IMG/VR virus record: IMGVR_UViG_3300032219_000321
Span: 1-26,834 of that record
Direction: 5' to 3' (one strand)
Origin: a virus
Lineage: Duplodnaviria > Caudoviricetes
DNA length: 26,834 nt
The notes beneath the pieces are model-generated. The model was not told the origin of the DNA. It searched no databases and saw only the letters and a list, made by a program, of their open reading frames with translations. Position 1 is the first letter of the stretch, and every line of letters starts with the position of its first letter. Below, in pieces: positions 616 to 25,750 of this stretch. The position numbers were made by a program, and so were the translations under genes.

Positions 616-623
616 GGTGAGCC

Positions 624-4194: not shown

Positions 4195-4195
4195 C

Positions 4196-4717: not shown

Positions 4718-4718
4718 A

Positions 4719-6798: not shown

Positions 6799-6828
6799 GA
6801 TGACCTCCTAATAGTCGGGGCAGGTGGT

Positions 6829-7029
6829 TCATTCTTCTTCTCCACCGAAGAAGCCCGACCCATAAGCGTCATCATTAACCTTCTGCTTTATTTTTTCAAG
6901 ATTTATTGCCCTATCAATGACCTTTAGTTTTGTATCAACGTCATCAATAACGCCACTCTCAACATCCTTGAGAAGCTGAGAGATCGTCTTTTCGAGGTCT
7001 GGGTTAATACCCTTGTCCTTCTTAGCCAT
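6829..7029 (-). CDS. hypothetical protein (66 aa)
   Basis: TAATG-coupled to the upstream 770-aa gene; SD GAGGT. Confidence 0.7.
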   Translation of the reverse strand: MAKKDKGINPDLEKTISQLLKDVESGVIDDVDTKLKVIDRAINLEKIKQKVNDDAYGSGFFGGEEE

Positions 7030-9341: not shown

Positions 9342-9344
9342 GAC

Positions 9345-10874
9345 TTACCTCAAACCAAGTGGATCATTTTCAGATGTGGAGCCGCCACCTTCAGAACCAT
9401 AACCGGAGAAATACCGATTAACATCTTCCGGCAAGAAGCGCTTGAAGTCTTCTTTAGTACGACGAGTGCCTGCTGTGTACTGACGCTCAGCAGCCGCATA
9501 ACGACCACCAATCAATTCACGCAAGGTTTTGACAACTCCCTTTGTCTGTTGAGGAGAGTTGTAGGATGCCAAAATGCTTTCAGCTTCTTGACGATCAGCC
9601 AGAGCGCCAGCCGTACCCGTGATAGCTTTGACAATTTCAGATGCAACAGCCTGTTTTGCTGCATTGAAATTTGAGACTTCTGGATGACCAAGCTGAGTTT
9701 TGAAATAATTGATAAGACGGTTTTCAGCTTGAATGTCTCCATTCTGAAGAGCTTCCGAAAGTTTATCAATCGTCTCAAGATGGTTATAAACGGTGTTAAA
9801 TGCTTGAATTTGCTTAGCACCAGCGCCGTTCGGATTAGTCCAGTTTCTTTCAGCAGCTTGAATGTTGCCAAAATCACCTTCGTTAAAATTAGGATTGATC
9901 TCACGAACACGCGCCATGATCTTGTCGCGATTACGATTTTGAAGACCCGGCGCTTTGAAGGCCAAATTAGCAATGCCTTGCGCTGTTTTTTCAATTTCTT
10001 CATCGCTTGCAGTTGTGCGGCCACGGTCAGTTGGACGAGCAATCTGCTCAACAGCCTGACCACTAGCGGTGGCCTGACGAAGCTGAGCAGCGCTGTAAAA
10101 GCCTTTAATGCCATCAATGCTGGCATAAATAGTTTGTCCACCTGATGTATCACCAAGTGCTTTATCAATAGCCGCAACAGTTCTTAGAGATTGATCCACT
10201 TGAGTATTAGCGCGGTTCATCACCTCAATACGCATCTTGTCAGTTTCCATCAAACCCTTCTTGTAAAGGTTTGTGGCAAGAGCATCGGCCTCAAGAGATT
10301 TTAGTTCAGTAAAAAGCTTTCGTTCAGCAGCCGGAAGATTGCTTTTAGCCAGTTCCTTGGCTCGATTGAACGCAGCCGTGATCTGATCGTTGTGAGCTTT
10401 GATAGACTGCATGTTTTTGTCAAACTCAGCCTTTTCGCGCTCGAACAGGTCTTTACGGCCCTCACGATAACCTTTGAGCATACCGCCCATAGCGTTCATA
10501 GCGCCGAGAGCAGAGCCATATGACTTACCGCCGCCAAACGCACCGATAGCGCCAATCAAGCCAAACAAACCAACAAGTTCAGCCTTGCTTTCCGGCGTAG
10601 CCTTAAACTCTGGAATGTCCTTGTACTGGCTTTCATATTTCTGAGAAAGGTCGCGAGCGGTGCGGCTTTCACGATCAGCGCGAGCAACTTCAAGCTCTGC
10701 CTTTTTCTTGGCAGCGCCGAGCGTTGCTTCGCTCTCTTTCTTGATAAGACTTTCGTAAACATCCGGCTCAGTCAGCTTAGGAGCTTCAGCAGGCTTGATG
10801 TTCTTCAAAAGCTCATCGCGCTTGACGCGGAGGCCATCAGGCGCGGTGCTACCGTCAATAACTTCATCAACCAT
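9345..10874 (-). CDS. internal virion / ejection protein (509 aa)
   Basis: Helical, with a Gly-rich hydrophobic patch; C-terminal NDPLGLR; synteny. Confidence 0.6.
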   Translation of the reverse strand: MVDEVIDGSTAPDGLRVKRDELLKNIKPAEAPKLTEPDVYESLIKKESEATLGAAKKKAELEVARADRESRTARDLSQKYESQYKDIPEFKATPESKAELVGLFGLIGAIGAFGGGKSYGSALGAMNAMGGMLKGYREGRKDLFEREKAEFDKNMQSIKAHNDQITAAFNRAKELAKSNLPAAERKLFTELKSLEADALATNLYKKGLMETDKMRIEVMNRANTQVDQSLRTVAAIDKALGDTSGGQTIYASIDGIKGFYSAAQLRQATASGQAVEQIARPTDRGRTTASDEEIEKTAQGIANLAFKAPGLQNRNRDKIMARVREINPNFNEGDFGNIQAAERNWTNPNGAGAKQIQAFNTVYNHLETIDKLSEALQNGDIQAENRLINYFKTQLGHPEVSNFNAAKQAVASEIVKAITGTAGALADRQEAESILASYNSPQQTKGVVKTLRELIGGRYAAAERQYTAGTRRTKEDFKRFLPEDVNRYFSGYGSEGGGSTSENDPLGLR

Positions 10875-10877
10875 GAC

Positions 10878-12074
10878 TTAAGCCCTCGAACCGCCGTAAA
10901 GCTGCGCCAACTGCGTGAAGAAGTTGCCAGCCGCCGTGTTGGCTTGATTTGTAAGACTGACGCGGGTGTTCAGCGCATTGATCTCATTGGCGATAGCCGA
11001 GTTCATGACCGTATTGCCCGAGCCGAGGATTTGCAAAGCCTGCGTCAACTGATTGTTGATAGCCTGCTGCCGCATTTGTTCAGCGATCTGCGTTGCTTGC
11101 ATAGCTCCAACAGAACCAGAGCGAGACGCTGCTTGAGCCAACTGAGCGCGAGCAACGTCAAACTGTTGTTGATTGACAGGTGTCAAACCGCCTTGAGTAG
11201 CAAGACCGTATTGCAGACCACCTTGCTGCAAGAACGGCTGAGCCATCGTACGCTGTTCTTGAGCCAGAGCTTTGATCTGACCAGCAACGTCGCCAGCTTG
11301 CTTACGAGCCGCAGCAGATTGATAAGCGCCAAGACCACCAGCGCCTAGCAACAAAGCCAGCTTGAGGGGATCAGCAGTCAGCTTGTCAAAAAAGCTTTTT
11401 TCGCCTGTCGTGGTTCCCTTAGCTTGTTCAAGCTGAGACAAACGCTTCAATGCATCTTCTTGACCAGAAATGATGCGATCAATCTCTTCTTGAGAACGAC
11501 CCCCCTCACCCTCTTCGCTGCCAGTTGTACTAGCAAAATATTTATTCAACTCAGGAGCTAATTCTTGATATGGACGAAGCTGCGGAGTTGCTGCAAAAGT
11601 TGGTGCATATGAACCAGTTAAGATTGGGTCAGTCGCCAAGGTTGAATAAGCCGTGCTTATATCGCCTTGCTGAGGATACGACGGAAAATCATAAGGCGTG
11701 TAATTTCCAAGCGTAGCGCCACCTGTTGCAGATGGTTCGTAAGCAGGACCAGCAGGCTGATCGTAGATGTATTGCGGTTCATTGCCTTGATATGGCGTGA
11801 ACTCACCAGCGGCAGGCTCAACGAAAGAACCGTAATCTGTTGGGCCAGAGAAGATGTCAAAATAACCGTCTTCAAACTCAGGAAGGCCCGTATCAGGGTT
11901 GATAGAGCCACGACCACCTTCACGCTTTAGTTTACGAGCCTCACGCGGCGTAATGTGAGCCAGAACCGTGTCACGGCCACGGCCCTTCGAGCGCACGATC
12001 TGCGCGAGGGCTGCAACCGGAAGGTTGGTCGTCACATCAGTTTGGAGGACTTCAGCAAGGTTTTTCTTACGCAT
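10878..12074 (-). CDS. internal virion / ejection protein (~398 aa)
   Basis: GRGRDTVLAHITPREA..LK..GG.GSINPDTGLPEF motif and Gln/Ala-rich C-terminus; ATG 12074 follows SD GGAGAGG. Confidence 0.65.
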   Translation of the reverse strand: MRKKNLAEVLQTDVTTNLPVAALAQIVRSKGRGRDTVLAHITPREARKLKREGGRGSINPDTGLPEFEDGYFDIFSGPTDYGSFVEPAAGEFTPYQGNEPQYIYDQPAGPAYEPSATGGATLGNYTPYDFPSYPQQGDISTAYSTLATDPILTGSYAPTFAATPQLRPYQELAPELNKYFASTTGSEEGEGGRSQEEIDRIISGQEDALKRLSQLEQAKGTTTGEKSFFDKLTADPLKLALLLGAGGLGAYQSAAARKQAGDVAGQIKALAQEQRTMAQPFLQQGGLQYGLATQGGLTPVNQQQFDVARAQLAQAASRSGSVGAMQATQIAEQMRQQAINNQLTQALQILGSGNTVMNSAIANEINALNTRVSLTNQANTAAGNFFTQLAQLYGGSRA

Positions 12075-12861
12075 TTTCCTCTCCAATAGTCCTTAACGAT
12101 GCGGTGTTCCAGACATTAGACGGCGGCTTCTCTGTATCGGAAGTGCCAAAGACTGCCCCACCGGGAACATAACCGGACGGAGCAGACGGTAAGCCGCCAC
12201 CGATTGTAGCTCCACCTGAAGGCGCAGTCACGCCTCTACTAAGGGCAGATTGAGCTGCTGTGCCGCCAGCACCACTGCCTCTACCACCGCCCCCAATGTA
12301 ACCTAAACTACGGCTTGCCGACGGCGCTAGGGCAGCTTGCAGACCCGCAGAAAGGCCAGTGTTAAGAAAAGCTGTTGAATAAGGACCAAGATCAGCCGCC
12401 GTTCCAATTCCACTAGAAAGACCACTAGACAGGCCGGAAATAGCTCCACTTTTGAGTGCCTGACCAATGTTAGCGCCACCAGCTAAAGAGCCAGCCGTAC
12501 TACCAGCAGCTCTTCCAACTCCCGTAGAAATCGCCTTATCAAGAGCTGGAGAGCCAGTAGAGCCTAAAGCTGAAGCAACAGTAGGAGTAACAAATGCTCC
12601 AACACCACCAGACACACCGCCCGTAAGAGCGCCTTTGGCTATGTCTGTGCCGCCAATAGCTGCTGATGTAGCCCCAATTCCGGCCCCAATAACGGCTCCA
12701 CCCACAACGTTGCCTACAGTAGTTGCGGCAATAGTTGCGGCGGCAGCTTCAGCACCTACGATGGCAGCACCAACAGGCGCAGCAAGGCCAGCCGTAGCAA
12801 TGGTCGCAACCACCGCAACAGCAACCGCCAGCCACTTCCTGATTTTTTTGAACCAACCCAT
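12067..12861 (-). CDS. Gly/Ala-rich DNA transfer (pilot-like) protein
   Basis: MGWFKKI followed by long Gly/Ala/Ser hydrophobic glycine-zipper-like repeats. Confidence 0.65.
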   Translation of the reverse strand: MGWFKKIRKWLAVAVAVVATIATAGLAAPVGAAIVGAEAAAATIAATTVGNVVGGAVIGAGIGATSAAIGGTDIAKGALTGGVSGGVGAFVTPTVASALGSTGSPALDKAISTGVGRAAGSTAGSLAGGANIGQALKSGAISGLSSGLSSGIGTAADLGPYSTAFLNTGLSAGLQAALAPSASRSLGYIGGGGRGSGAGGTAAQSALSRGVTAPSGGATIGGGLPSAPSGYVPGGAVFGTSDTEKPPSNVWNTASLRTIGEENA

Positions 12862-12863
12862 TC

Positions 12864-13361
12864 TTAGAGGTCCATTTCGATATAGTACATGGGCGACATT
12901 TGCTGACCGTCGAACATCATTTGTTGGCTGACTTTAACGTTTGGCCCCATTGATTTTGCCATTTCTACATCATCTTTGTCATCTGTCATTGAGACAATTT
13001 TCTTGATGCCCATTTGCTTGAGGGTGTTAGGCAGAACCTTTAGGCGCTCAGCGGCTTGCTCTGGCTCAGCCGTAAAAGGAAACATCATCACCGTACCGGG
13101 CGGCAGGGGCTTTCCTTTGCTATCAATCTTGTTCAGCAAAAAGACCGTCTGCCCAATTTGAGCAAGTTGAGCCTGTTTGGCTTGCACCATACGACCTATG
13201 TTATTGAGAAATTGATTAGCTTCTTTTGGTCCCATTTCTTCAGTCAGAACTTTAGTAATGATCTCAGCAGAGTTCATAACCTTGGGTTCAACCGCCTGCT
13301 TAGGCTGACGAAGCTTGCCCATCTGAACCTTCTCAGGCTTTCCAATCATCGGATCAGGCAT
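12864..13361 (-). CDS. hypothetical protein (165 aa; possibly degenerate GNAT-like)
   Basis: Occupies the slot before the ejection genes; tight spacing. Confidence 0.65.
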   Translation of the reverse strand: MPDPMIGKPEKVQMGKLRQPKQAVEPKVMNSAEIITKVLTEEMGPKEANQFLNNIGRMVQAKQAQLAQIGQTVFLLNKIDSKGKPLPPGTVMMFPFTAEPEQAAERLKVLPNTLKQMGIKKIVSMTDDKDDVEMAKSMGPNVKVSQQMMFDGQQMSPMYYIEMDL

Positions 13362-13362
13362 G

Positions 13363-13701
13363 TCACAACCCCAAGGTGTCTATGATTTGTGTGTGGATAG
13401 AATAGTGCTGAGCGACCCATTCGTAAAACTCATCTTCTTTACGAAAGTCTGCGTCTAACATATTGAAAGGGTTAGACAAATCTAAAACAGACGCAAAGAA
13501 CTGATGCTCTACTTGGTGCATCAACAACCAATCGTCAAAATTATCGGTATCAATGTCCGTTAATGGATAGGACGGGCATTGGATGCCGCGCTCTCCAAGC
13601 TGCTGCCGAAACAGACGATGTTGCTCAGCGTTCTCAAAGGCAAAGTCCTTGAGGCTCTCAGGGTCGCCAAACTCAACAATAGAGAGCCGCTCAAGGTCCA
13701 T
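13363..13701 (-). CDS. His-rich acidic hypothetical protein (112 aa)
   Basis: ATG 13701 lies 1 nt after the upstream TGA, SD GGGGTG; two W-x3-H-x3-H motifs. Confidence 0.7.
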   Translation of the reverse strand: MDLERLSIVEFGDPESLKDFAFENAEQHRLFRQQLGERGIQCPSYPLTDIDTDNFDDWLLMHQVEHQFFASVLDLSNPFNMLDADFRKEDEFYEWVAQHYSIHTQIIDTLGL

Positions 13702-13702
13702 G

Positions 13703-14692
13703 TCACACCCCGTAGTAAGGGATTTTCTTATTAACCCCACCGATTTGAACGATGATATAGCCTTCCGGCACAAGCGGCAGGCTAGAGGTCGCAAAGGTCG
13801 CGTTGGCGTTCGTCGTACCCGTCAGGTTCAAAGTCGCCGTAGCAACTGATCCTGAGTTCATTGTCAGGTTATCGACTGTCAAATTACCGACAGTTGAGGT
13901 TGTAGAACCCAACGTCAGTGTCGTATTACCAAGCGTCAGAGTGCTGTTAGCCAAACCCGAGTTTGGAATAGTTGCATTTATCTGCGACGGCGCGATGCTG
14001 ATCGCCGCGTTCGCCGCTGCTGTAAGACGCCCCTGCGCGTCAACAGTGAAAGTTCCGACGGTGCTTGCATTGCCATAGCTCCCTGCCGCGACAGCCGTAT
14101 TAGCCAGATTAAGAGTGACATTTCCTGTCAGCGCGCCACCGCCCGACAGACCCGTGCCAGCAAGGACATAGGTTGTGTTGCTGACAGCCCCAGAGACTTG
14201 AGCAGCCGTGATAGCAATCGTGGCATTAGCAGCCGCCGTGAGCCTGCCTTGGGCATCTACGGTAAAAGTAGCAACCGTTGCAGGCCCGCCATAGGAAGCA
14301 GGCGTTACAGCCGTATTGGCGAGGGCTAGTGTAACATTAGCATTAAGCTGCCCACCACCAGATAGCCCAGTAGAAGCCAGCACATACGTCGTATTTGGTG
14401 TGGCTCCAACATTGGCTGCTCCTAAGACTACAGCCCCCACTTGCCCGTTGACAGACGTAACAGCATCCGTGTTGTCGATCTTTTGCCAGACGTTGCCGTT
14501 AAAGACAGCCCAATCGCCAATCTGCCAATCCGTCACACCATCAAGATTGGTCGAACCAGCAACATTGACGACGTAGTAATAGCCTTGCGTTCCAACTCCC
14601 GATTGAAGAAACGGAGAGTTAGCTGAAGCGTTCCATGTCCCCTGATAGCGGAGACTGCCTACAGCCGCGAGAGCGCTGGCTACCTTGAGCAT
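13703..14692 (-). CDS. tail fibre / structural protein with 72-aa duplication
   Basis: YQGTWNAS.N.P.L..G.G..G.YY.V..AG...LDG..DW..GDW...NG..WQKIDNTD module, VTSVNGQ.GAV, and fibre-type TVDAQGRLT repeats. Confidence 0.75.
   Translation of the reverse strand: MLKVASALAAVGSLRYQGTWNASANSPFLQSGVGTQGYYYVVNVAGSTNLDGVTDWQIGDWAVFNGNVWQKIDNTDAVTSVNGQVGAVVLGAANVGATPNTTYVLASTGLSGGGQLNANVTLALANTAVTPASYGGPATVATFTVDAQGRLTAAANATIAITAAQVSGAVSNTTYVLAGTGLSGGGALTGNVTLNLANTAVAAGSYGNASTVGTFTVDAQGRLTAAANAAISIAPSQINATIPNSGLANSTLTLGNTTLTLGSTTSTVGNLTVDNLTMNSGSVATATLNLTGTTNANATFATSSLPLVPEGYIIVQIGGVNKKIPYYGV
13975..14395 (-). repeat. tandem 216-bp (72-aa) intragenic duplication
   Basis: NTTYVLA.TGLSGGG.L..NVTL.LANTAV...SYG...TV.TFTVDAQGRLTAAANA.I starts at 14395 and again at 14179. 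Confidence 0.9.
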
Positions 14693-14700
14693 TTATCACC

Positions 14701-15045
14701 TCAGAGGCCGTCACCCGGCACAATGTAAAGAGTTGCCGTGCTGGATGCCGTCAGAGCCGTAAAATAAGCGTTCGGCACAAACGTAATCACTTCATCCGTG
14801 GCAGGCAGGATGTAGAGAGTGCGTGTGCTGTTAGCCCCGCCACCTGTCGGAATAACGCAGTTGGCCGTCGCATCTGCTGCTGTAGAGGCAAAGGACAGCC
14901 AAGCACCAACTGTCGTTGACGAGTTGATGATGCGATACTGATTGCCGCCCAACGTAGCCGAGGAGCATTGCACGGGCGTCGGTGCGCTTGTTGCAGCCGT
15001 CAGAACGATTGTGTTGCCCGTAACGGTAAAGGCATTGACACCCAT
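14701..15045 (-). CDS. beta-rich virion-type protein, paralog of 6038-6391
   Basis: SD GAGGT; Thr/Ala-rich; ends IVPGDGL. Confidence 0.75.
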   Translation of the reverse strand: MGVNAFTVTGNTIVLTAATSAPTPVQCSSATLGGNQYRIINSSTTVGAWLSFASTAADATANCVIPTGGGANSTRTLYILPATDEVITFVPNAYFTALTASSTATLYIVPGDGL

Positions 15046-15054
15046 GATGACCTC

Positions 15055-15381
15055 TTAGGAAAGAGCAGCGAACGGGGGAACCATCGGAACCACCGGAGGA
15101 TTGTTGAGCAGCGCAATCTGATCTGCGAGCTTCTGGTTGATCTCAGTCATGTCGAGCTTGTCAGAGCAAACCGCAATGCACCAATCAGCCGTCAACGAAG
15201 CGTAAGGCTTAAAGTCAGACGGGTTAGGCGCATCAAGAGCAACCGTGCCGTAGCAGCCGCAAGAGACTTTGCCATCTGTCGCGTCATAGCGCCAATGGAT
15301 CGTCTTCACAACGTCGGTCAGGCCGTCTTCAGCCTTGGCAACGTCAAACTGCGGGAAAGTCCACGCATAAGAGATAGACAT
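15055..15381 (-). CDS. tail fibre-associated protein
   Basis: Y.W......DGL.DVV..IHWR...F.PY..LT...W pattern, typical of genes directly downstream of S74 fibres; TAATG coupling. Confidence 0.7.
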   Translation of the reverse strand: MSISYAWTFPQFDVAKAEDGLTDVVKTIHWRYDATDGKVSCGCYGTVALDAPNPSDFKPYASLTADWCIAVCSDKLDMTEINQKLADQIALLNNPPVVPMVPPFAALS

Positions 15382-16820
15382 TATTTAGCCTCCAAAACGG
15401 CCACGCGGGCCTTCAATTCGTCGTTCTGAGCTTTAAGTTCTTGAATGGCGGCTACGAGAGTTGCAACAACAAAGCTGGCATCAACCCCCTGATGTTTTGG
15501 CTTTCCATCAGAGTCAACCGCATCTTTTTCTCCACAGACCGCGCCCGGAATTACAGATTGCAATTCATGAGCAATAAAGCCTTCGCCATCAGACCCGTCT
15601 GATCTCCATTTAAAAGTCACGGGTTTAAGCAGAGAAACACGAGCAAGAGCGTTTTTCATCGGCTCAATCGTATCTTTCAAGCGATAATCCGACGAAGTTG
15701 TGTAAAGAACAGTTGTGCTTCCGTTGTGCGTGATTGCACCCGCCTGAGCGGGAGTATCATTTACAAATTGAACGTAATTTCCACCAGTTGTCCCTGTGTC
15801 GCGCATGACTAGACCATTAAAGGCATTCATGCTGCAAGAGATCAAAACTTTTGATGAGCTAAGCGCCGCTGTCGCCCCCACCAGCAAATTGCCGTTGTTG
15901 TCTAAACGCATTTTTTCTGTCGGCGCGGAGTTCAACGCGCTTGATGTGCTGAACACCAACTGACCAGTTGGATATTGACCGTTTGTTCTTGCGCCAAAAA
16001 TGCAGTTAATAGCCGCAGAGGTATAGTACGTTGAATTAATGCCTGTGAGAGCAGCAAAACCCAACTGAGATGTATTGCTTGTAGTTGTGTCGGAATTTCC
16101 AATCACAATAGCCGCTGTGCTGCCAGCAATAGTGGTGCTGGTGTCACTTTTTGAAACAAGCAGGGGGCGAACTGATCCAACCTGATCGTTGACGTTGTTA
16201 GCCGTATTTCCGATCCCCACGTTGCCGGAGGAGTCAATGCGCATACGCTCTGTGCCATTAGTTGCAACAACTGCATACGACCCATTCAGTGCAATCGGCA
16301 AATAACCAGACTGTGCGGTGTTTGTGGATTCCAGCAAAGCACCACTAAATGAAGAACTATAACCAGCAATACGAAGAAGGCCGCTTGAGCCAACATTAAA
16401 CATCGTATTGCCGTCACCGCCAGAAACAACAAACTTTCCGTAAGTGCTTGGCGAACTCGTCCCGATCCCCACGTTCTGCGACGTATCAATCGTCATGGCC
16501 GTTGTCGTGCCATTGCTCTGGAACGTCAGGTTGCCGTCAGAACGATGCGTTGCAGCATTGAGCGTCGTTGCATTGATCGTCGTGATATTGCCCGTCGTGG
16601 CCGTAACAGTTGAGAAACGACCCGTAGAAGAGGTCGTTGCGCCAATTGTAGTGCCGTCAATCGTACCGCCCGTGATCGAGACGTTAGACAGAGCGTTCGT
16701 GCCATTGCCTATGCCGTTGATGCCGTTGACGACAGTTGTAAAATTGGCGTCGAGCTGCGAGAGCGGGATGGCACTCGTTGCCGTCGCAAAGGTGTATGTG
16801 ACGCTAATCGGGAGAGCCAT
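15381..16820 (-). CDS. tail fibre with C-terminal intramolecular chaperone (Peptidase S74)
   Basis: IPLSQLDANF anchor, ERMRIDSSGNVGIG repeats, Y.TSSDYRLK auto-cleavage site, GFIAHELQ, C-terminal coiled coil. Confidence 0.9.
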   Translation of the reverse strand: MALPISVTYTFATATSAIPLSQLDANFTTVVNGINGIGNGTNALSNVSITGGTIDGTTIGATTSSTGRFSTVTATTGNITTINATTLNAATHRSDGNLTFQSNGTTTAMTIDTSQNVGIGTSSPSTYGKFVVSGGDGNTMFNVGSSGLLRIAGYSSSFSGALLESTNTAQSGYLPIALNGSYAVVATNGTERMRIDSSGNVGIGNTANNVNDQVGSVRPLLVSKSDTSTTIAGSTAAIVIGNSDTTTSNTSQLGFAALTGINSTYYTSAAINCIFGARTNGQYPTGQLVFSTSSALNSAPTEKMRLDNNGNLLVGATAALSSSKVLISCSMNAFNGLVMRDTGTTGGNYVQFVNDTPAQAGAITHNGSTTVLYTTSSDYRLKDTIEPMKNALARVSLLKPVTFKWRSDGSDGEGFIAHELQSVIPGAVCGEKDAVDSDGKPKHQGVDASFVVATLVAAIQELKAQNDELKARVAVLEAK

Positions 16821-16821
16821 A

Positions 16822-19026
16822 TTAGAACCTCACTCTGAGTTCGTGTTCCATTTCGAACGTGTTGTAGATCATTCCGGGTGAATTGGATGTTACTGTAAGT
16901 CCAAGGTATTTGCCATATTGCATAGCATCGGACTTGTAGAGCGCATAGCCGTTGGACAATGACCAAGGAATTGTTTGCGAGCTGTTATTTTGCCACGGAA
17001 TTGTTGTTCCGAGGTAATTGTACCAAGTGATGAAGTTGGTCAGCGTATAGGCAGGACTTGCACCCGTCTCGCTGTCCACAGTCACGGTCAAAGTACCGCC
17101 CTGCGTCAGCGTCGCTTCAATGCCAAACTTGAGAGCCTGCTTGGTGCGGATCGTGTCCTGCATAGGCCAAAGGGCTGTCAGTAGGCGGGTCGAAACGTTA
17201 GCCGTGGAATTGGCATAAGCGCGGATCAGATTGGTTCCACCCGTGCCATACAAGTAAATGATGCCCAAAGACGGCACAGAGGTCGTCCGCAGCAAAGTGC
17301 CTTGGCTGGTGATGAACCATTTCTTGTCAAAAAACACGGCTTGGATAGGCCGCAGACCCATGACCGGATCGTTGTAATAAAAGTTGAACGCCGCGCAGAG
17401 GATGTTGTTGACAAGAACCTGACCACCCGTGATTGGATAAGAGAAGTCGATCAGAGGAAACACGCCATCCAGAGCATCAGAAATCTTGGTCGTGGTCGCA
17501 CCAACCAGCGCATACACACCGTAATCGTTCATGAACAAGACAGAACGGAAATACGGGAAGATAGAACCGGGGCGACGAGAGCCGACCGAGGCCGACACGT
17601 TGGTGTTGGTAAAGGTCGTAATGCCGTTAGTGCCAACACGAACGTCAGAGAAGACGTTAATGCTGTCGTCACCAAAGATGTAAAGGAAGTTGTTGGCACT
17701 TAGCAAAGCATTGATATTGCTGTGCAAAGTGTCGTCAGCCAGCGTCAGGTTGCCAGCCGAAATTGACGAAAAATCATTGTATTGACCAGCAGCCGTGTAA
17801 AAGACGGTACGGCCTTGGCTGATCCACACACGACCTTGGAACGTCTCAAGACCGTTGTTTGCCTTGGTTGTTGCCACACCCGTTGCTGTCGCGCCATTAC
17901 CTCCGCCGCCAGAGATCGTGACCGTCGGATTGCTTGTGTAGCCAGAGCCGGGGTTAGTTACCACAACGCCGACCACCGCACCTCCAGCAATAATAGCCGT
18001 TGCGGCAGCATTTGCCCCGCTACCGCCAGAAATTGCTACGTTGGGGGTCGATGTATAGCCAGTGCCGCCATTGGTGATGGTGACGCCGACCGTGCCATTG
18101 GCAAAGGACAAGAAGCCAGCCACGGCTGTTGCATTTGTGCCACCGCCGCCCGTGATGGTCACGTTAGGTGTGCTTGTATATCCCGTACCAGCGTTTGTAA
18201 TGCTGATACCGCTCACAAGGCCGGAGCCAAGTGTAGCTGTCAGGTTAGCCCCAGAGCCGCCACCACCTGTAATAGTGATAGCTGGCGTAGTTATGTACCC
18301 ATAACCGGGGTTTGTGATCTGAACGCCAGCGATGGCATTGTTGGAAAGGGTCGTAACGACTGCTTGAGCCTGCGTTCCGGTCGAGGAAGTCGGCGGGTCA
18401 ATCGTAATGGTCGGAAAAGCCGTAAAGCTAGTGCCACCATTATTGATTGTGATGTTAGTAATCGTGCCAGCAGCGTTCGAAATGAACGCAATAGCTGTCG
18501 CCTGCACACCATTCGTTTGGTTCGGAGCCGAAATGGTCACAAGCGGGGGCTGTGTATAACCAGAACCAGCGTTGGTGATCCCGATATTGGTAATGCAGCC
18601 AACGGTAATGAGATTAGCGCCATCCCATGTGTAATAGCCCTTCTCAGGGTCAACGATGGTGGCTCTCTCGTTCTTCCATTGTTTAGAAATGACGCCAGTA
18701 GCCGAGAAAGTGCTTGAATTGGCGACCGTCACAACCGTATTGGACGAGATTTTATAAGCTTGAGCGCTGCCATTAGATTGAAAAGCCAGAATGTAGTCCT
18801 GATTTTCGATATTCACGCTATCAATGTGCGTGACCGTGTTTGCCCATGTAATGCCGACGTTGGACTGAGCCGCAACAATCTTCAGATTTCCGTAACCAAT
18901 CGGCTGAATGTTCTCAATCCAAGCAAACTCCTCATCAGCAATAGCCGTGCGGTTTGCTTTGGTGTTCAGAGCCTTGAACGCCTTAACAACTTGGTAATTT
19001 TTCTTTTGTTCGGGCGACTGTGCCAT
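16822..19026 (-). CDS. tail nozzle / packaged-DNA stabilisation protein (P22 gp10 or tubular B-like) with internal repeat insert
   Basis: Beta-propeller-like sequence (GRVW, LYIFG, VLFMNDYGVY, KISD.L); follows the adaptor gene. Confidence 0.7.
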   Translation of the reverse strand: MAQSPEQKKNYQVVKAFKALNTKANRTAIADEEFAWIENIQPIGYGNLKIVAAQSNVGITWANTVTHIDSVNIENQDYILAFQSNGSAQAYKISSNTVVTVANSSTFSATGVISKQWKNERATIVDPEKGYYTWDGANLITVGCITNIGITNAGSGYTQPPLVTISAPNQTNGVQATAIAFISNAAGTITNITINNGGTSFTAFPTITIDPPTSSTGTQAQAVVTTLSNNAIAGVQITNPGYGYITTPAITITGGGGSGANLTATLGSGLVSGISITNAGTGYTSTPNVTITGGGGTNATAVAGFLSFANGTVGVTITNGGTGYTSTPNVAISGGSGANAAATAIIAGGAVVGVVVTNPGSGYTSNPTVTISGGGGNGATATGVATTKANNGLETFQGRVWISQGRTVFYTAAGQYNDFSSISAGNLTLADDTLHSNINALLSANNFLYIFGDDSINVFSDVRVGTNGITTFTNTNVSASVGSRRPGSIFPYFRSVLFMNDYGVYALVGATTTKISDALDGVFPLIDFSYPITGGQVLVNNILCAAFNFYYNDPVMGLRPIQAVFFDKKWFITSQGTLLRTTSVPSLGIIYLYGTGGTNLIRAYANSTANVSTRLLTALWPMQDTIRTKQALKFGIEATLTQGGTLTVTVDSETGASPAYTLTNFITWYNYLGTTIPWQNNSSQTIPWSLSNGYALYKSDAMQYGKYLGLTVTSNSPGMIYNTFEMEHELRVRF
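17870..18594 (-). repeat. six ~40-aa ITN.G.GYT..P.VTI.GGGG repeats inside the nozzle gene
   Basis: ITNAGSGYT, INNGGTSFT, ITNPGYGYI, ITNAGTGYT, ITNGGTGYT, VTNPGSGYT. Confidence 0.85.
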
Positions 19027-19664
19027 TATGGCCCCGTATTGTAGGCGTTAGGCACTCTACGGGTGAACTGGGTCGAGAGGACGTTCTGAACGAGCTTCTG
19101 ATACTCGCCCTTATAGATTTCGCTCTCCCCATAGCTCTGCTCATAATACTTCGCCAGATGAGCGGCAAAGAACGGAACAGGCTGCTGAAACGGCTGAACA
19201 ATGTCAGTTTCAACGTCAGCAAGATTAACAAGGTCTGTCGGCTGCACAACCGTGTCTACTTCAATCGTGTAAACCTGATCTGGCGATGGTCCGAGGAAAA
19301 ACTTCTGCGGTCCATAGGTAGAAAAGGCAATCGGACGGTTGTAATAGTTTTGCCAGTAACGCAACTGGGCATTAAACTGCGACCAAGGCAGATAATTCAG
19401 CGGCCATCGCGAATTGCCCCAGTAGAGATTGATGTTGATGATGTCGAGAGTATTCGAGCCATTAGGCAAAGACGAATAGTTATAGACTTCTTGGTTGGTG
19501 ACTGTCGCAGAAGTCTGAAGTTCGCGCTTACATCCCGTGTCTCGCACAAGCTGGTTACGAGCGGTATTGATGTATGCCGTCAGGTCTTGGTCAGACCAGA
19601 AATTAGCATTGGCATCATGAAGAAGCCGTCTGACTTGCGTGATGTAGTCTTGTAGCGTGGTCAT
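19026..19664 (-). CDS. head-tail adaptor (tail tubular protein A-like)
   Basis: TL.DYITQVRRLLHD....FWSD..L..YIN.A...L, P..F, LGP.PD..Y.IE.D; position upstream of the nozzle. Confidence 0.75.
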   Translation of the reverse strand: MTTLQDYITQVRRLLHDANANFWSDQDLTAYINTARNQLVRDTGCKRELQTSATVTNQEVYNYSSLPNGSNTLDIININLYWGNSRWPLNYLPWSQFNAQLRYWQNYYNRPIAFSTYGPQKFFLGPSPDQVYTIEVDTVVQPTDLVNLADVETDIVQPFQQPVPFFAAHLAKYYEQSYGESEIYKGEYQKLVQNVLSTQFTRRVPNAYNTGP

Positions 19665-20469: not shown

Positions 20470-20832
20470 TTACGAGGTAGCGTAGGAGGACTGAGGTGCT
20501 GCATTACCGCCGTTGACTGTGTACAACGTGATCGTCTGAGTTCCCGTCGAAGCATTTGCACGAACGTTGTAACCGTCCGAAACAATCGAACCGCCGACGT
20601 TCGCAGCAATCCACGTTGTCCAGCTATTAGCCGTACCCGTGTAAGCGTTGAACTCGATGGTCACGTTTGCTGTAGGAAGCAGAACGTAGTTGCCAGCGGG
20701 CAAGAACTGGGACGAACCCATAGCTGTCGCGTTACCAGCACCAACGCTGGAAACAGTGACAGGCTGGAAGTACGCACCAGCCGTATTGGCCGAGGCATTA
20801 GCGAGAATAATTTTGTTATTGGCGAGTGCCAT
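20470..20832 (-). CDS. putative capsid decoration protein
   Basis: Immediately follows the MCP; SD TAAGGAG; beta-rich. Confidence 0.6.
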   Translation of the reverse strand: MALANNKIILANASANTAGAYFQPVTVSSVGAGNATAMGSSQFLPAGNYVLLPTANVTIEFNAYTGTANSWTTWIAANVGGSIVSDGYNVRANASTGTQTITLYTVNGGNAAPQSSYATS

Positions 20833-20844
20833 AAGTCGATCTCC

Positions 20845-21855
20845 TTAGAGCGAGAGCGAGTTGTAGCCCGTCACCTTAGTCATCGACTTAGGCTTAGTGC
20901 TAACAAGCTCAGCAATATTGATGACCGCGCCGACGTAGCCAATCTGCCAGTTAGGCAGAGTGCTCTCGAAGCCCGTGAACACGAACTGGCCCTGCTCATG
21001 GATGTAGAGCGAGAGATAGTTGGTGTTGAGGAGGTACAGAGTACCTTCTGGGCAGTACGGGTCAGGATAGATCGGAACGCCAGCGACCATGAGGGCGCGG
21101 AACGCCGACTGCGGGCCATTCGCGTCGCCATCAAAGCCCGAGCCGGGGGTGATGACGTACTGTTCTTGACCAACGTAGTCCTGCGCGAGGAGCGTCCAAG
21201 TACCAAAGCCGCAGACACCGAATGTCGGGACTTCAGCACCGTTCTTGACTGTGCCGGAGATGTACTGAAGCACGTTCTGACGGGTCGGGTTGACCGAGCC
21301 AGCAGCATACTGCTTCGACTTCCACCAAGCATAGGTGTTACGGTTGATGTTGCCGTAGGTCGCTGTGCCTGTGCCATCGTCAACAGCCGCCGGAAGGCCC
21401 GTGAAAGCCTGCGTGTTGGTGGTGTTGTTGTAGAGGGCAGTCGCCATAGCGTCCATCATCACGTTCGTAGCGTCGTTCATACGAGCTTCGATGAGCGGGA
21501 TGATAGCATGATCCTGCTGGACAGCGCCTTCCATGCCGAGGAACGGCACAGGAGAGATCATGAGCTTGAGGTTGAACTCAGCGTTGTAAGCACCCTGCTG
21601 GACGGCAGGCTGTGCGAACGAACCCGAGTAGTCAGACCACTGAGCATTGACGAACTGAGCGCCCTGCACCGGAACCGTGACTGACGAGACACCGCCCGTT
21701 GCAGTCTGCGAGTTCGCGATCAGAGCCGCCATCAGCGGCGTCGAGTTATAGATTTGGACCACCATCTTTGGGATGAAGGCCCGGCGGGTCACATACGTCA
21801 GTTCTGTGTACTGATTAGTGCCCGATGCGGGGAGAATACCGCCTCCGATAGGCAT
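20845..21855 (-). CDS. major capsid protein (HK97-fold expected)
   Basis: 336 aa after the scaffold; FTGLPAAVD, YGNINR....WWKS, GVPIY.DPYCP.G.LYLLNTNYL; strongly biased codons; SD GAGGTG. Confidence 0.85.
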   Translation of the reverse strand: MPIGGGILPASGTNQYTELTYVTRRAFIPKMVVQIYNSTPLMAALIANSQTATGGVSSVTVPVQGAQFVNAQWSDYSGSFAQPAVQQGAYNAEFNLKLMISPVPFLGMEGAVQQDHAIIPLIEARMNDATNVMMDAMATALYNNTTNTQAFTGLPAAVDDGTGTATYGNINRNTYAWWKSKQYAAGSVNPTRQNVLQYISGTVKNGAEVPTFGVCGFGTWTLLAQDYVGQEQYVITPGSGFDGDANGPQSAFRALMVAGVPIYPDPYCPEGTLYLLNTNYLSLYIHEQGQFVFTGFESTLPNWQIGYVGAVINIAELVSTKPKSMTKVTGYNSLSL

Positions 21856-21905
21856 TAGTTCACCTCATGTTAAGTTTCGGTTTGCGCCTCTCGTCCCCGA
21901 TAATG

Positions 21906-22451
21906 TCAAAACCCAATCGGACGCGGGTTCTTCCGCAATTCCGTCAGAGCCTTGGCAGCTTCGTCGCGGGCAGCGGAAGCAGGATTTTTCCAGAACTTAG
22001 ACAGTGAGCTACGAGCGCTGTCATCCAAGACGTTTCGATTATAGGAAGTCTGAGGAGTAGGCGTCGCGGCTTGCCGCATATAGTTCCAGTAATCTGCCGC
22101 CGCTTCGTGGTTGGTTATACCTTTTTCGAGCATAACTTTTTCCACTTCCGCGATGTCATCTTCTGATTTCACCTTGCCAGTTTTAATGAGGTCGCGCCGA
22201 CGACGTTCCAAGGTGTCGAGCGCTTCGCGTTCACGCAGCTTACCTTCAAGCAGGTTTACGCGCTCATTAGACTGTTCAAGTCTTGCTGCCACTTCATCTT
22301 TCAAGTCGATGGCATCAATCGTGAGAGAAGGACGAGCCTTCTTGGTAAGGCGCAAAAACGCCTCCCGAGTATCTGGGTTGTCAGCCAATTCGCGAGCAAG
22401 CTGAGCAAGCTCATCACGGGCTTCCGGTGTAAGGTCTTCGAGAGACGGCAT
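21906..22451 (-). CDS. putative scaffolding protein
   Basis: Charged, helical 181-aa protein directly upstream of the MCP. Confidence 0.65.
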   Translation of the reverse strand: MPSLEDLTPEARDELAQLARELADNPDTREAFLRLTKKARPSLTIDAIDLKDEVAARLEQSNERVNLLEGKLREREALDTLERRRRDLIKTGKVKSEDDIAEVEKVMLEKGITNHEAAADYWNYMRQAATPTPQTSYNRNVLDDSARSSLSKFWKNPASAARDEAAKALTELRKNPRPIGF

Positions 22452-22475
22452 TGTTTTGTCCCCTATGCTGTCTGG

Positions 22476-22661
22476 TTAGATGACTTTTTTGCCATCGCCG
22501 GGAGGAACGATCTTGTAGATGTTCTTCGAGGCGGTCTTCTTGGCGCTATCAAGGCCACCGAGCGTCGCGAAACGCGGCGTGTTGGTGATCTGACCATTCT
22601 GCTGCTGATTGGTCGTCGGGTTGCGAGGCGCAGCGGCCCCGCGAGGCTTAAACAGGTCCAT
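22476..22661 (-). CDS. hypothetical protein (61 aa, MDLFKPRG...)
   Basis: ATG 22661 after SD TAGGAG; the ORF-track 5' extension overlaps the upstream gene and is unlikely. Confidence 0.7.
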   Translation of the reverse strand: MDLFKPRGAAAPRNPTTNQQQNGQITNTPRFATLGGLDSAKKTASKNIYKIVPPGDGKKVI

Positions 22662-22671
22662 TTTGTCGCTC

Positions 22672-23154
22672 CTACATGGGCGGGGTCGGTCCACCGGGCG
22701 GCATACCCGGTGGCATTGCGGTCGGCGCACCAGCGCCCATAGGCGCGGGCGGTGCAGGCATGGGGGGTGCACCACCGGGGGCTGAGCCACCCGGCAGCGC
22801 ACCAGCCGCCTGCGGGAGATTGTTAAGAAGCTGCATGATCTCAGCAGCCTGCAATTCGTCCGTCTTTTGCTTCTTTGCACCAATGATGGAAGTCAAAGAG
22901 TTAAGAGCTGACATGAGTTTACGGCCTTCCGGTGTGGAAGAACCGATTTGTGGGAGCGAGCGTTCCAGAAGATCAAGCGCCATGCTGACGTTAATCATAG
23001 CGGCTTCGCGTTCGCCAGCCTTGGGCTCTGGCGTTGACATAGGCGAAGGCATAGGAGGCATTGCTTCTGAAGCAGGAGGCGGGGCCATAGGTTCATCGCC
23101 CGTTGGAGCGGGACCACCCTTTGCCATCAACTGCATAATGTCCTGATCGGCCAT
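22672..23154 (-). CDS. Pro/Gly/Met-rich protein with helical core
   Basis: SD AAGGTG; disordered termini around a helical centre. Confidence 0.75.
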   Translation of the reverse strand: MADQDIMQLMAKGGPAPTGDEPMAPPPASEAMPPMPSPMSTPEPKAGEREAAMINVSMALDLLERSLPQIGSSTPEGRKLMSALNSLTSIIGAKKQKTDELQAAEIMQLLNNLPQAAGALPGGSAPGGAPPMPAPPAPMGAGAPTAMPPGMPPGGPTPPM

Positions 23155-23170
23155 GTAACACCTTAGTTTC

Positions 23171-23204
23171 TGTCAAAATGCTGACAGTCAGCACGAAATG
23201 TCAA
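23171..23204 (-). promoter_or_regulatory. candidate promoter/operator: two TTGACA flanking the palindrome TGCTGAC-N-GTCAGCA
   Basis: TTGACA on the - strand at 23199-23204 and 23171-23176; 7-1-7 inverted repeat at 23179-23193; no consensus -10. Confidence 0.45.
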
Positions 23205-23243
23205 GCGGGGGATATTTTTACGTCCGTCCCCCGTCAGACGAAA

Positions 23244-23266
23244 CCAAAAACGGGACTAACCCGTTT
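23244..23266 (-). terminator. intrinsic terminator-like hairpin after the micro-ORF array
   Basis: AAACGGG-TTAGT-CCCGTTT continuing TTGGTTT on the - strand, 5 nt after the last micro-ORF stop. Confidence 0.55.
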
Positions 23267-23271
23267 ATTAG

Positions 23272-23310
23272 TTAGCGGCGAGCCTTACGGCCCTTGCGAC
23301 CCATACGCAT
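23272..23310 (-). CDS. Arg/Lys-rich micropeptide 3, MRMGRKGRKARR (12 aa)
   Basis: SD GGAG then ACGCAAA ATG; ends CGC TAA; shares RKGRKA with micropeptide 2. Confidence 0.65.
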   Translation of the reverse strand: MRMGRKGRKARR

Positions 23311-23375
23311 TTTGCGTCTCCGTCATGAGAGGGATGTATTGGTTTGAAAAGCTAATGGACCCTTGCGGGAACCAA

Positions 23376-23411
23376 TTAGCGCTTTGCCTTGCGGCCCTTA
23401 CGCTTAGCCAT
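23376..23411 (-). CDS. Arg/Lys-rich micropeptide 2, MAKRKGRKAKR (11 aa)
   Basis: SD GGAGG then CCGACACA ATG; ends CGC TAA. Confidence 0.68.
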   Translation of the reverse strand: MAKRKGRKAKR

Positions 23412-23452
23412 TGTGTCGGCCTCCGGTTAGAGTAACTGTCCCCAATTTCGGT

Positions 23453-23497
23453 TTAGCGACGCTTGCCGCGACGGCTGCGCTTCATTGACTTGTACAT
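23453..23497 (-). CDS. Arg/Lys-rich micropeptide 1, MYKSMKRSRRGKRR (14 aa)
   Basis: SD GAGGT overlapping the upstream stop, ATG 3 nt after it; ends CGC TAA. Confidence 0.65.
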   Translation of the reverse strand: MYKSMKRSRRGKRR

Positions 23498-23500
23498 AGC

Positions 23501-23662
23501 TTACCTCACGTTTACACGTTGGTTCTGTCGCTGTGTCTGATCCCGCCCGATAGACCGGATCGAAGACACGCGATACTGGAGGTTCGCTGGTTTTTGCTCG
23601 CGTGTCAATTCTTTGGCACTAAAACGAGGTTGATCGCCTGTGGTCGCTTGACGTTCAGCCAT
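23501..23662 (-). CDS. hypothetical protein (53 aa; not in the ORF track)
   Basis: MAERQATTGDQPRFSAKELTREQKPANLQYRVSSIRSIGRDQTQRQNQRVNVR*; SD AAGGGAG; ATG overlaps the portal 3' end. Confidence 0.65.
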   Translation of the reverse strand: MAERQATTGDQPRFSAKELTREQKPANLQYRVSSIRSIGRDQTQRQNQRVNVR

Positions 23663-25271
23663 TTGCGGCTCCCTTTTTCATCGGAGTGACGTTTTCGGCC
23701 TGCGGTTGCGGGGCAGCAGCGGCCTTCTTCAGCTTCTCTTTGAGCATCTGCTTCATGGGCGGGTCGATCAGGTCGAGCAAGCTTTCCTTGTCGATAGCGC
23801 CAGCTTTGAACAGATTGAACGCCATAGACCGCGTATCTTCCATGAAGATAGGGCTATTCGAGTGAGCGTCCACTTTGACGATGTAATCTTTGGTAAATTG
23901 TTCTGGTATGAACTTTAAGCCTTCCGCATCTTTGTAATGCGTCGGGTCGTAAGCTTGGATCAGCTTCATGTAGAGCGTCGCCATCTTTTCCAATGCAAGC
24001 TCGACTTGCAAAGCGCGGCGTTTGGCGCGGGATGAGCCTAAGCGGGCAAGTTGTGATGCGTGACCAGCAGATCGAACACCGCTTTCACCGCGACCTGACA
24101 GCACAGAAGAAATGCCAGAAGCTTCTTCAAACATTGCGTCGATCTGATTGAGCTGTTCATACAGATCAGCAGGCATCTGCGGGGCCAAACGATCAGCTTT
24201 TGCGTTCGGCATATCTGTCGAAAGCAAGCCGCCGGGGCGGTTCAAAGCGAAGTTCTTTTCGTCCAAAATCCCAGTAAAGCCCATCAAGGCTGTCGGTGGG
24301 TTTACTTGCTTGGCAAGAAGGTCAAGGATTTCGCCCATGCGCTTGTTACGCATTTGCTGTAGGAAGACGAGGCGAGAAACTTCCGATTGACCCCAGAAGT
24401 AGTCGGGCATCGGGTTTGGCGTAATCTGAATAAAGGGGTTTTCGCCCTTCAAGAACATATTCTCGTTTGGACGGTCATAGATGATAACATCTGGCTGTGC
24501 GCGAGTGACAACCATGTAGTCTTGGATTTCATCATCCCAGACATACAGCTCCGTCATTTCAATTGTTTCTTCCTCGACCTTTGGCTTCATGCGGTTGTAG
24601 CCAAACAGATCAAGGTTCACGTTGCCGTACATAGTCGGATCGACTTGAGACAACACGATGCGGTCAACGCCGCTTGCGATGTAGTTGCTTTGTGTCGGCG
24701 CAGTTGTGATGCGCGAGATAATGCTGTCGCGTTTCGGATGATTGTACAACCGAGCGAACAGGTCAGATTTTGTCATGTAGTAGGTGTGGGTGAAGGCTTC
24801 CTGCCTGTCATTGTGCGGAATGTCTTCGCGCAACACACCCATCATCGCCGGATCGACAAAGTAGGGGAAAATACTACCGTTATGTACGATCAGCTTTACG
24901 AAAGCCGAATTGAAGCACATGGCCCAGTTTAGAGCTAAACCAAATACATGGTCGCCGTTGCTGTCTGACCATTTGTCGTTAAGAACTTGGGTAAGACGCG
25001 GAATTTTTTTGTATTCGTATTCAGCAGCCGACGCGCCAAGATTGATTGCAAAGCGAGTGGTGTCAGCCGAATAGAGGAAGGCAACCAACTGGTCGATGTG
25101 CGGATAGATTTTGTTGTAAGCCGCCGGAGCTTCTTCTGGGCCAGCGCCGAAAAGATAATAGGAGCGAAGGCTTTCGTAGTCGGCCTTACGATCCTCAAAA
25201 GAAACCTTACACTTGCGAACAAGGTCCAGATAGAACTCTTCGCGATGGTTAAGGTCTTTTGGAATTCTCAT
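23655..25271 (-). CDS. portal protein (538 aa)
   Basis: Size and position after terminase; YNKIYPHIDQL..FLY, VDP, NPF..ITP...PDYFWG.SEV..L..LQ...N, SGI..VL.GRGE.GVRS. Confidence 0.85.
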   Translation of the reverse strand: MRIPKDLNHREEFYLDLVRKCKVSFEDRKADYESLRSYYLFGAGPEEAPAAYNKIYPHIDQLVAFLYSADTTRFAINLGASAAEYEYKKIPRLTQVLNDKWSDSNGDHVFGLALNWAMCFNSAFVKLIVHNGSIFPYFVDPAMMGVLREDIPHNDRQEAFTHTYYMTKSDLFARLYNHPKRDSIISRITTAPTQSNYIASGVDRIVLSQVDPTMYGNVNLDLFGYNRMKPKVEEETIEMTELYVWDDEIQDYMVVTRAQPDVIIYDRPNENMFLKGENPFIQITPNPMPDYFWGQSEVSRLVFLQQMRNKRMGEILDLLAKQVNPPTALMGFTGILDEKNFALNRPGGLLSTDMPNAKADRLAPQMPADLYEQLNQIDAMFEEASGISSVLSGRGESGVRSAGHASQLARLGSSRAKRRALQVELALEKMATLYMKLIQAYDPTHYKDAEGLKFIPEQFTKDYIVKVDAHSNSPIFMEDTRSMAFNLFKAGAIDKESLLDLIDPPMKQMLKEKLKKAAAAPQPQAENVTPMKKGAANG

Positions 25272-25750
25272 TTTTCGATCTTCAGCGTTGGGTCATTCGC
25301 ATGAACGATTGTCGGAAGGTTCGACGGGAGATTAGCATCTTTTGGATTAAAGCCAACTGGCTCACCCATAGCCGATCTGACCGCGCCGCCAGACAACATG
25401 TTTTGCATATTAAACATTCCAGTGCCAGCTTCGCCCCACATCACGCCATTTATCTTGGCTGCGATGGCTGCTTCCTCTTCTTGCTTGCTGACTTTGGCGT
25501 TGTTGCGGGTCAAATAACCCGGCTGAGCCTCGCCTTCACGCACAGATTTGATGTCTGTCATGCCAAAATCAACAGCTAACTGCTTGAGGTTGTTGTCATT
25601 TCTCTTTGTACGCCCCGTTTTAGTGCTATCACGCATAGATGGGGCACGAAGGAAAACTTGGGCCACATCTGTGCATCCATGCTCGCAAAGAGGCTCCCAA
25701 GCTTCAAAAAAGCCGTGCCGAGGGCATTTGTAGGAACGAAGAATACCCAT
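25268..25750 (-). CDS. Zn-ribbon (FmdB-like) protein
   Basis: YKCPRHG.FE....CEHGC metal-ligand pattern; ATG 25750 after SD GGAG. Confidence 0.65.
   Translation of the reverse strand: MGILRSYKCPRHGFFEAWEPLCEHGCTDVAQVFLRAPSMRDSTKTGRTKRNDNNLKQLAVDFGMTDIKSVREGEAQPGYLTRNNAKVSKQEEEAAIAAKINGVMWGEAGTGMFNMQNMLSGGAVRSAMGEPVGFNPKDANLPSNLPTIVHANDPTLKIEK

Follow-up and report, generated by a model that had tools for sequence, protein, structure and literature searches.

Does the interval between the portal gene and the capsid block of a tailed phage encode peptides of only 11 to 14 residues and, if so, what could such peptides do in the head module? A first-pass annotation had proposed that three ORFs in this interval form a multi-copy system of protamine-like peptides, which would condense the phage DNA or neutralise its charge. 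The window, i.e. the whole stretch of 26,834 nucleotides analysed here, corresponds to a 75%-complete virus record of 26.8 kb, whose terminase, portal, capsid and tail genes all lie on the minus strand.

Three micro-ORFs between the portal gene and the capsid block

The coordinates, SDs and compositions of the three SD-led, K/R-rich ORFs of 11-14 codons are all reproduced (Table 1). As the first-pass annotation had described, D and E are absent from the three peptides, each ORF ends in CGC-TAA, and the RKGRKA stretches of ORF2 and ORF3 differ at three synonymous third positions. When both strands are scanned (SD, ATG and 8-20 codons, with at least 45% K/R), ORF1 to ORF3 are the only such ORFs of the window, and 100 dinucleotide shuffles of the window contain 0.11 of them on average and 1 at most. 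The nearest relative, L001, is 98% identical at the DNA level and carries a Lys at the position of Met3 of the window ORF3, a Met that also arose independently in L317. The 53-aa ORF located upstream of ORF1 has a basic C-terminus and is without PHROG, Pfam or Atlas match; it is conserved after the portal gene, with homologues in close relatives but not in distant ones.

Table 1. Features of the head module in the window (all on the minus strand)
Feature	Position	Strand	Remarks
Portal protein, 538 aa	23655..25271	-	phrog_1216 E 4e-14; Pfam SU10_portal E 4e-14; upstream anchor of the cassette
53-aa basic ORF	23501..23662	-	between portal stop and ORF1; overlapped at its end by the ORF1 SD
Degenerate promoter-like site	23579..23607	-	TTGACA-17-GAACCT, 8/12; weak in the window's subclade; scored on L001, same sequence
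ORF1, 14 aa, Met-Tyr class	23453..23497	-	MYKSMKRSRRGKRR, 8/14 K/R; SD GAGGT 23507-23503, 5-nt spacer
Conserved TTGGGGAC spacer, weak hairpin	23426..23445	-	z -1.06, not significant alone
ORF2, 11 aa, RKGRK class	23376..23411	-	MAKRKGRKAKR, 7/11 K/R; SD GGAGG 23424-23420, 8 nt
Hairpin with GCAA loop	23353..23378	-	starts at the ORF2 stop codon; z -2.32
ORF3, 12 aa, RKGRK class	23272..23310	-	MRMGRKGRKARR, 7/12 K/R; SD GGAG 23321-23318, 7 nt
Terminator-like hairpin (loop TTAGT) and T-run, after ORF3	23244..23271	-	23266-23248 in the terminator scan; z -2.74
PK-B, predicted H-type pseudoknot / inverted repeat	23206..23240	-	ends one base before the -35 box
Conserved TTGACA, -35-like box	23199..23204	-	ahead of the capsid block; -10 poor in the window
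Dyad in the TTGACA spacer	23194-23180	-	ahead of the capsid block
Capsid block	20845..23154	-	Pro-rich ORF, 61-aa ORF, likely scaffold, MCP
Pro-rich ORF, 160 aa	23154-22672	-	first gene of the capsid block
61-aa basic ORF	22661-22476	-	capsid block, after the Pro-rich ORF
Likely scaffold	22451-21906	-	position only
HK97-fold major capsid protein	21855-20845	-	phrog_9953 E 5e-35 and AF2 model

The AF2 model of the major capsid protein (pLDDT 74.6) assigns it to the HK97 type fold, its best structural match being the capsid of cyanophage A-1(L) (7f38, TM 0.61), and the product of 22451-21906 is, from its position, likely the scaffold. The Pro-rich 160-aa and the basic 61-aa genes, both without PHROG or Pfam match, precede the scaffold gene in every relative with a capsid protein at least 40% identical. 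Elsewhere in the window, a basic 79-aa protein with the Pfam domain DUF6321 (5880-5641, minus strand) adjoins the lysis genes.

In the lake metatranscriptome run X1, one contig spans 23344-23555, i.e. ORF1 and ORF2, with one mismatch, ORF3 being uncovered; other contigs of this run cover much of 19.7-22.8 kb, and just one diverged contig falls within 1-19500. As the runs were found using 20800-25300 as the query and consist of contigs that may stem from DNA, their depth and contig ends rank no explanation.

Conservation and selection in relatives

Portal searches yield 57, 80 and 12 loci. The interval from the portal stop to the next capsid-block gene is spanned by 197 loci, 139 of them distinct, and 110 of these come from portal-anchored searches. 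The portal-anchored scan of relatives, which the first-pass annotation had put forward as a check, finds a sense-strand cassette (at least one such ORF) in 104/110 intervals and an antisense one in 0/110, while such an ORF occurs in 2/1080 shuffled intervals. One copy is present in 11, two in 49 and three in 44 of the 104 positive intervals, so that the proposed multi-copy character holds, with 0 to 3 copies among relatives. The wider portal scan is less uniform, the ORF being present in 52/68 complete intervals; after dereplication (83 lineages of 160 loci), the cassette is found in 74 lineages, and a quickly built tree of the portals needs three to five changes to explain its absence from the others. 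The clade is large, with an estimated 2,000 or so portal matches in IMG/VR and 2,819 clusters of capsid proteins. The window has only two close GenBank relatives, both uncultured spring-water phages, each with two unannotated peptide ORFs overlain by opposite-strand gene calls, in agreement with the claim that gene callers miss such genes. For one capsid homologue, the source given is an uncultured Caudovirales phage; no cultured relative was found, blastn giving chance matches only. When scanned exactly like the window, Mx8, Mx9, a Vibrio phage and a TM7 phage, chosen for a remote capsid or portal likeness, are without SD-led basic micro-gene.

Comparisons of codons point to selection on the peptide, as had been claimed from the window. 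The same peptide is encoded by up to nine different codon strings, with synonymous swaps that include AGC/TCN and CGN/AGA; TAA and TGA stops interchange and SDs are kept. Nearest-neighbour pN/pS is 0.14-0.36 across eight length classes, pN being possibly lowered somewhat by the K/R filter that picked the ORFs. In 67 intervals, the mismatch to the window is 0.19/0.17/0.35 at the three codon positions and 0.30 in spacers. Gap lengths are multiples of three in 91/180 cases in ORFs vs 99/556 in spacers, which is the expected direction, yet blurred by copy-number differences and shared ancestry. The comparative evidence thus leads us to regard ORF1 to ORF3 as real, conserved protein-coding micro-genes under purifying selection. 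The opposite view, in which the ORFs are incidental to a conserved RNA or DNA element that does not code for protein, would suit the highly structured region but is scarcely credible given the synonymous swaps, the exchange of stop codons, the kept SDs and the pN/pS, and Rfam gives no match.

A total of 199 distinct peptides was retained (at least 45% K/R, no D/E). Two lasting classes are distinguished, one starting with Met-Tyr (ORF1 type) and the other with an RKGRK core (ORF2 and ORF3). The peptides are 10-17 aa long in 198/199 cases, contain seven or eight basic residues in 177/199 and a basic-basic-small-basic-basic motif in 193/199, and end in K or R in 196/199. K represents 29% and R 33% of residues, and the longest basic run is 2 in 123 peptides, 3 in 75 and 4 in 1. 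CGT and CGC make up 88% of Arg codons, and Arg, Gly and Ala codons are closer to those of the capsid gene than to those of the portal gene.

In one clade, the K/R peptides are lost or replaced by less charged, Pro/Met-rich versions of 12-25 residues. L254 (6837-6899), L398, L405, L406, L419, L428 and L437 have Lys/Pro/Met-rich versions of 18-25 residues or none, and their portals are slightly more acidic. The idea of a link with salinity was rejected: the portal net charge per residue is -0.033 and -0.032 with 0 or 1 copy vs -0.020, and this reflects mostly one clade.

RNA structure and transcription signals

The peptide genes are embedded in an RNA anatomy that is absent from the first-pass annotation, with stop-adjacent hairpins, two predicted pseudoknots and a putative hidden promoter. 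The first pseudoknot, PK-A, is a predicted H-type structure that ends 14-21 bases before the start of an RKGRK-class gene in most relatives outside the window's subclade. In an alignment of 27 sequences, selected because the motif is present, 95% of cells are paired and 36 are compensatory, a result reached in 0/500 shuffles, slid controls being paired to at most 59%. About 100 distinct copies (e.g., L012:2804-2845, L256:6862-6901, L264:6737-6773) share an invariant GGCTG core and tandem G-U pairs. An ATG within PK-A opens ORFs of 5-7 codons (MAASP.., MADFP..) in L012, L208, L245 and L252, which may be incidental. The window is without PK-A and has the TTGGGGAC spacer in its stead. PK-B has both stems of at least 5 Watson-Crick pairs in 32/102 distinct tails vs 1/510 shuffles, and of at least 4 pairs in 77/102, its alignment being too poor for column-wise pair counts. 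Rfam gives 0 matches in the window and none over the cassette at E<=5 in five relatives, and neither PK-A nor PK-B matches it; as far as Rfam shows, PK-A is an undescribed phage RNA motif. Apart from the cassette, a weak type II hammerhead ribozyme match is found at L256:548-596 (minus strand; 28.7 bits, under the gathering score of 37). The hairpins at stop codons vary in sequence among relatives, several having a conserved YAG-type loop, and the one downstream of ORF3 is kept without T-run in many relatives.

The 150 bases ahead of the first peptide contain a sigma-70-like site (at least 10/12) in 58/238 distinct upstream regions vs 3/238 controls; the site is mostly 70-110 bases upstream and often inside the 53-codon ORF, and the window copy is weak. 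Stand-alone units arranged as promoter, PK-A, SD, ORF and hairpin are present in the distant relatives L262, L263, L264, L389, L391 and L392, with a TTGACA-17/18-TA(G/A)(T/A)GT promoter and, in L389, L391 and L392, a T-run after the hairpin. Ahead of the capsid block, 23204-23180 has the appearance of a late promoter under the control of an operator, its -10 being variable and often poor, and promoter prediction makes no call there in the window.

This anatomy raises the possibility that the cassette is an RNA regulator, the peptides binding their own hairpins or pseudoknots, or the translation of the ORFs switching an RNA structure that sets the read-through into the capsid genes. PK-A, with its strong covariation just before the SD, the presence of PK-B and the hairpins that start at stop codons, several with a YAG-type loop, would all fit. 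Arginine-rich motifs such as that of lambda N, a short basic sequence next to hairpins, indeed bind boxB-type RNA loops. The start codon moreover pairs with the spacer, and this pairing switches with the second codon (27/52 vs 3/52; 33/52 vs 1/52). As a peptide-specific control, however, this start-codon hairpin was rejected, since capsid and scaffold starts pair equally often (65% each). For an attenuator leader, which controls a terminator ahead of an operon without a promoter of its own, the signals point both ways: a terminator-like hairpin does follow ORF3, and beyond it comes the conserved TTGACA, with a poor -10 in the window. Against an RNA regulator, a separate TTGACA stands between cassette and capsid block, and single-gene units have their own terminator. 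Unlike lambda N or attenuator leaders, the peptides have no effector domain, for which 10-15 residues are too few, and they are multi-copy, form self-contained units in distant relatives and use common rather than rare codons. Finally, subclades exchange or lose RNA elements while keeping a peptide, as in the window, which is without PK-A, and in L016, where ORF1 is fused to ORF3 and the spacers have disappeared; this fusion indicates that the peptide outlasts the inner RNA elements. An RNA regulator is thus rather unlikely.

Genomic place of the peptide genes

Three portal-blind patterns, each encoding only SD, peptide and stop, were scanned. Their matches with long flanks lie in this head module in 78/79, 79/79 and 44/46 cases, and the remaining two of the 46 long loci also resemble head modules by their ORFs. 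The metagenome pattern scan reaches phages with 29-38% portal and 40-57% capsid identity to the window, and one peptide pattern gives 0 matches in 401 bacterial genomes.

In L481, the portal gene is inverted relative to its neighbours (3170-4972 of a 67-kb contig) and the capsid block still has the peptide gene at its head, in a single contig for which misassembly is possible. Another gene sits between the peptide gene and the portal gene in L262, L263 and L389. Additional genes have frequently been inserted immediately upstream or downstream of the cassette (L038, L061, L087, L126, L263, L389), which indicates that the portal-capsid junction is an insertion hot spot. The peptide genes track the capsid/scaffold block rather than the packaging genes, often with their own promoter. 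The co-expression with packaging genes that had been proposed must be amended in this sense: the cassette does belong to the head module, but with the capsid/scaffold block. Together, the promoter-terminator units and the L481 inversion argue that the output of the cassette is the peptide itself, which is likely produced in large amounts and is linked to capsid rather than packaging genes.

This location bears on two other explanations. The peptides could act in the cytoplasm, where they would compact or shield the replicating DNA of the phage in place of polyamines, or bind the ribosomes, the nucleoid or the defence sensors of the host; they could also be injected like IPI of T4, a packaged, non-essential anti-restriction protein (PMC9958956, excerpt). 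Composition and expression signals would fit such a role equally well, the promoter present in many relatives uncouples the peptides from the portal transcript, and patchy loss suits an accessory, host-facing function. We nevertheless consider it unlikely, as the portal-blind scans place the peptides almost only in the head module and their sequence appears to change little over very distant phages, unlike that of fast-changing counter-defence genes. The second explanation, very improbable, is that of a lysis aid weakening the outer membrane as cationic peptides do. The charge and a presumably late expression would be suitable, but the peptides have no hydrophobic face (L, F, W and V together about 1%), the endolysin gene (3685-4194) is about 18 kb away, and the peptides stay in the head module at all loci seen.

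A putative DNA counter-ion

The best reading, to which we give a probability of roughly 0.55, is that the peptides are a DNA-binding polycation that would neutralise only part of the genome charge, as suggested by their composition, their position and their expression signals. Peptides of 11-14 residues (+7 to +8) would likely be made in bulk late in infection, a high output to which strong SDs, capsid-like codons, an mRNA stabilised by the 5' pseudoknot and 3' hairpins, and duplication acting as dosage all point. They would bind phage DNA without sequence specificity, as the basic-basic-small repeat, the presumably disordered chain and the absence of acids and of a hydrophobic core suggest. 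They could then enter the procapsid via scaffold-exit openings, like those of P22, whose scaffold exits through hexamer openings (PMC12005531, excerpt), and would be retained in the head after expansion as a counter-ion too large to leak. During head filling, they would partially neutralise the DNA, complementing Mg2+ and polyamines with an ion that does not diffuse out.

The arithmetic sets the scale. A genome of ~36 kb contains ~72,000 phosphates, of which 1,000 peptides offset about 10%, whereas 90% needs about 9,000. With 1,000 peptides, the effect would thus be that of a supplement to Mg2+ and polyamines and not of a protamine-style coat. Arg5 condenses dsDNA, enters herpes capsids and removes capsid pressure (PMC7377361, excerpt), and with spermine 30% of the lambda DNA stays inside capsids that have been opened (PMC3632124, excerpt). 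Given such holding of DNA by polycations and the need for about 9,000 peptides, partial neutralisation would be the most that fits. True DNA condensation by the peptides is consequently unlikely, so that, in the function first proposed, condensation is to be dropped and a nucleic-acid-binding polycation probably kept. Similarly, 'protamine-like' stands as an analogy (short, basic, acid-free), not as a membership, since basic runs are of 2-3 residues and K nearly equals R.

Several points count against a peptide counter-ion. Polycations suppress ejection (PMC7377361, PMC3632124, excerpts), and phages use cations and polyamines, the excerpt of PMC3281028 reporting neither evidence for a large contribution of basic proteins to the neutralisation of phage dsDNA nor much room for them. 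The cassette is dispensable (absent in 9/83 dereplicated lineages and 16/68 complete intervals). The GRK core (115/199 peptides) and the N-terminal Tyr/Phe of one class (83/199) are more conserved than bulk charge alone requires, and Lys codon use is portal-like (AAG 59%, vs 57% in the portal gene), not capsid-like (76% in the capsid gene). No capsid-targeting sequence like that of T4 internal proteins was found in the peptides, and no acidic partner was identified, the scaffold having 32 basic and 34 acidic residues.

Our results describe a real family of micro-genes that is conserved, has escaped annotation and comes with new RNA motifs, and whose function we infer. The literature search, with subscription papers mostly outside its reach, yielded no account of polycation micro-genes from tailed phages, and the excerpts of PMC7247149, PMC11965321 and PMC11323111 contain nothing on this point. 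In the same literature, as far as the excerpts go, no protein of a tailed phage is shown to neutralise genome charge. Metal ions and polyamines are regarded as the agents that neutralise the DNA of these phages (PMC3281028, excerpt). We tentatively propose, with somewhat less than even confidence, that a widespread tailed-phage lineage encodes peptide counter-ions of 10-17 residues from a pseudoknot-stabilised mRNA, with hundreds to thousands per head tuning DNA pressure. If so, the peptides would stay where Mg2+ and polyamines leak out in dilute water, their copy number (0-3) would serve to adjust the pressure, and their genes would be among the shortest viral genes. A family of 10-17 codons reveals a layer of head-module genes overlooked by gene callers and tryptic proteomics alike. 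The peptides are cheap to synthesise, and their effects on condensation, packaging motors and ejection are testable in lambda, T4 and phi29.

Comparison with known systems

Several small basic proteins of viruses resemble these peptides in part. Protein J of phiX174 and J-like proteins are tiny, unfolded and basic (24-38 aa), are encoded next to the capsid gene and partly neutralise the genome. The window peptides are likewise tiny, basic and encoded beside the capsid block; their length is about half that of J, their genes come in as many as three copies, and the phage is a tailed dsDNA one, with portal, terminase and an HK97-fold capsid, instead of an icosahedral ssDNA phage. J of Microviridae has a basic N-terminus and an aromatic C-terminus (PMC9865509, excerpt), whereas in place of a hydrophobic capsid-docking tail almost all our peptides have a basic last residue, the aromatic residue, where present, being N-terminal.

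Eukaryotic dsDNA viruses condense their genomes with short basic proteins (PMC6163548, excerpt). Our peptides are, like adenovirus mu, baculovirus P6.9 and protamines, short, very basic and acid-free. Protamines and P6.9 are dominated by Arg, in long clusters, in contrast to the short basic runs and the nearly equal share of Lys observed here. Adenovirus mu matures from a longer precursor that the viral protease cleaves, whereas here each peptide is read from a separate ORF, complete with SD, start and stop codon, and has no precursor. Unlike the packaging of mu, P6.9 or protamines, motor-driven packaging through a portal would probably strip bound peptides.

T4 IPI-IPIII are small, non-essential head proteins present in ~360 copies (PMC9958956, excerpt); unlike them, our peptides carry no 10-residue capsid-targeting leader and are far shorter. 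Polyamines are organic counter-ions of phage DNA (PMC3281028, excerpt), a likeness from which the peptides depart in being gene-encoded and of charge +7/+8. By analogy, these peptides would work like J or like a gene-encoded polyamine, although those hallmarks of J, protamines, mu and the T4 internal proteins that could be tested are absent from them.
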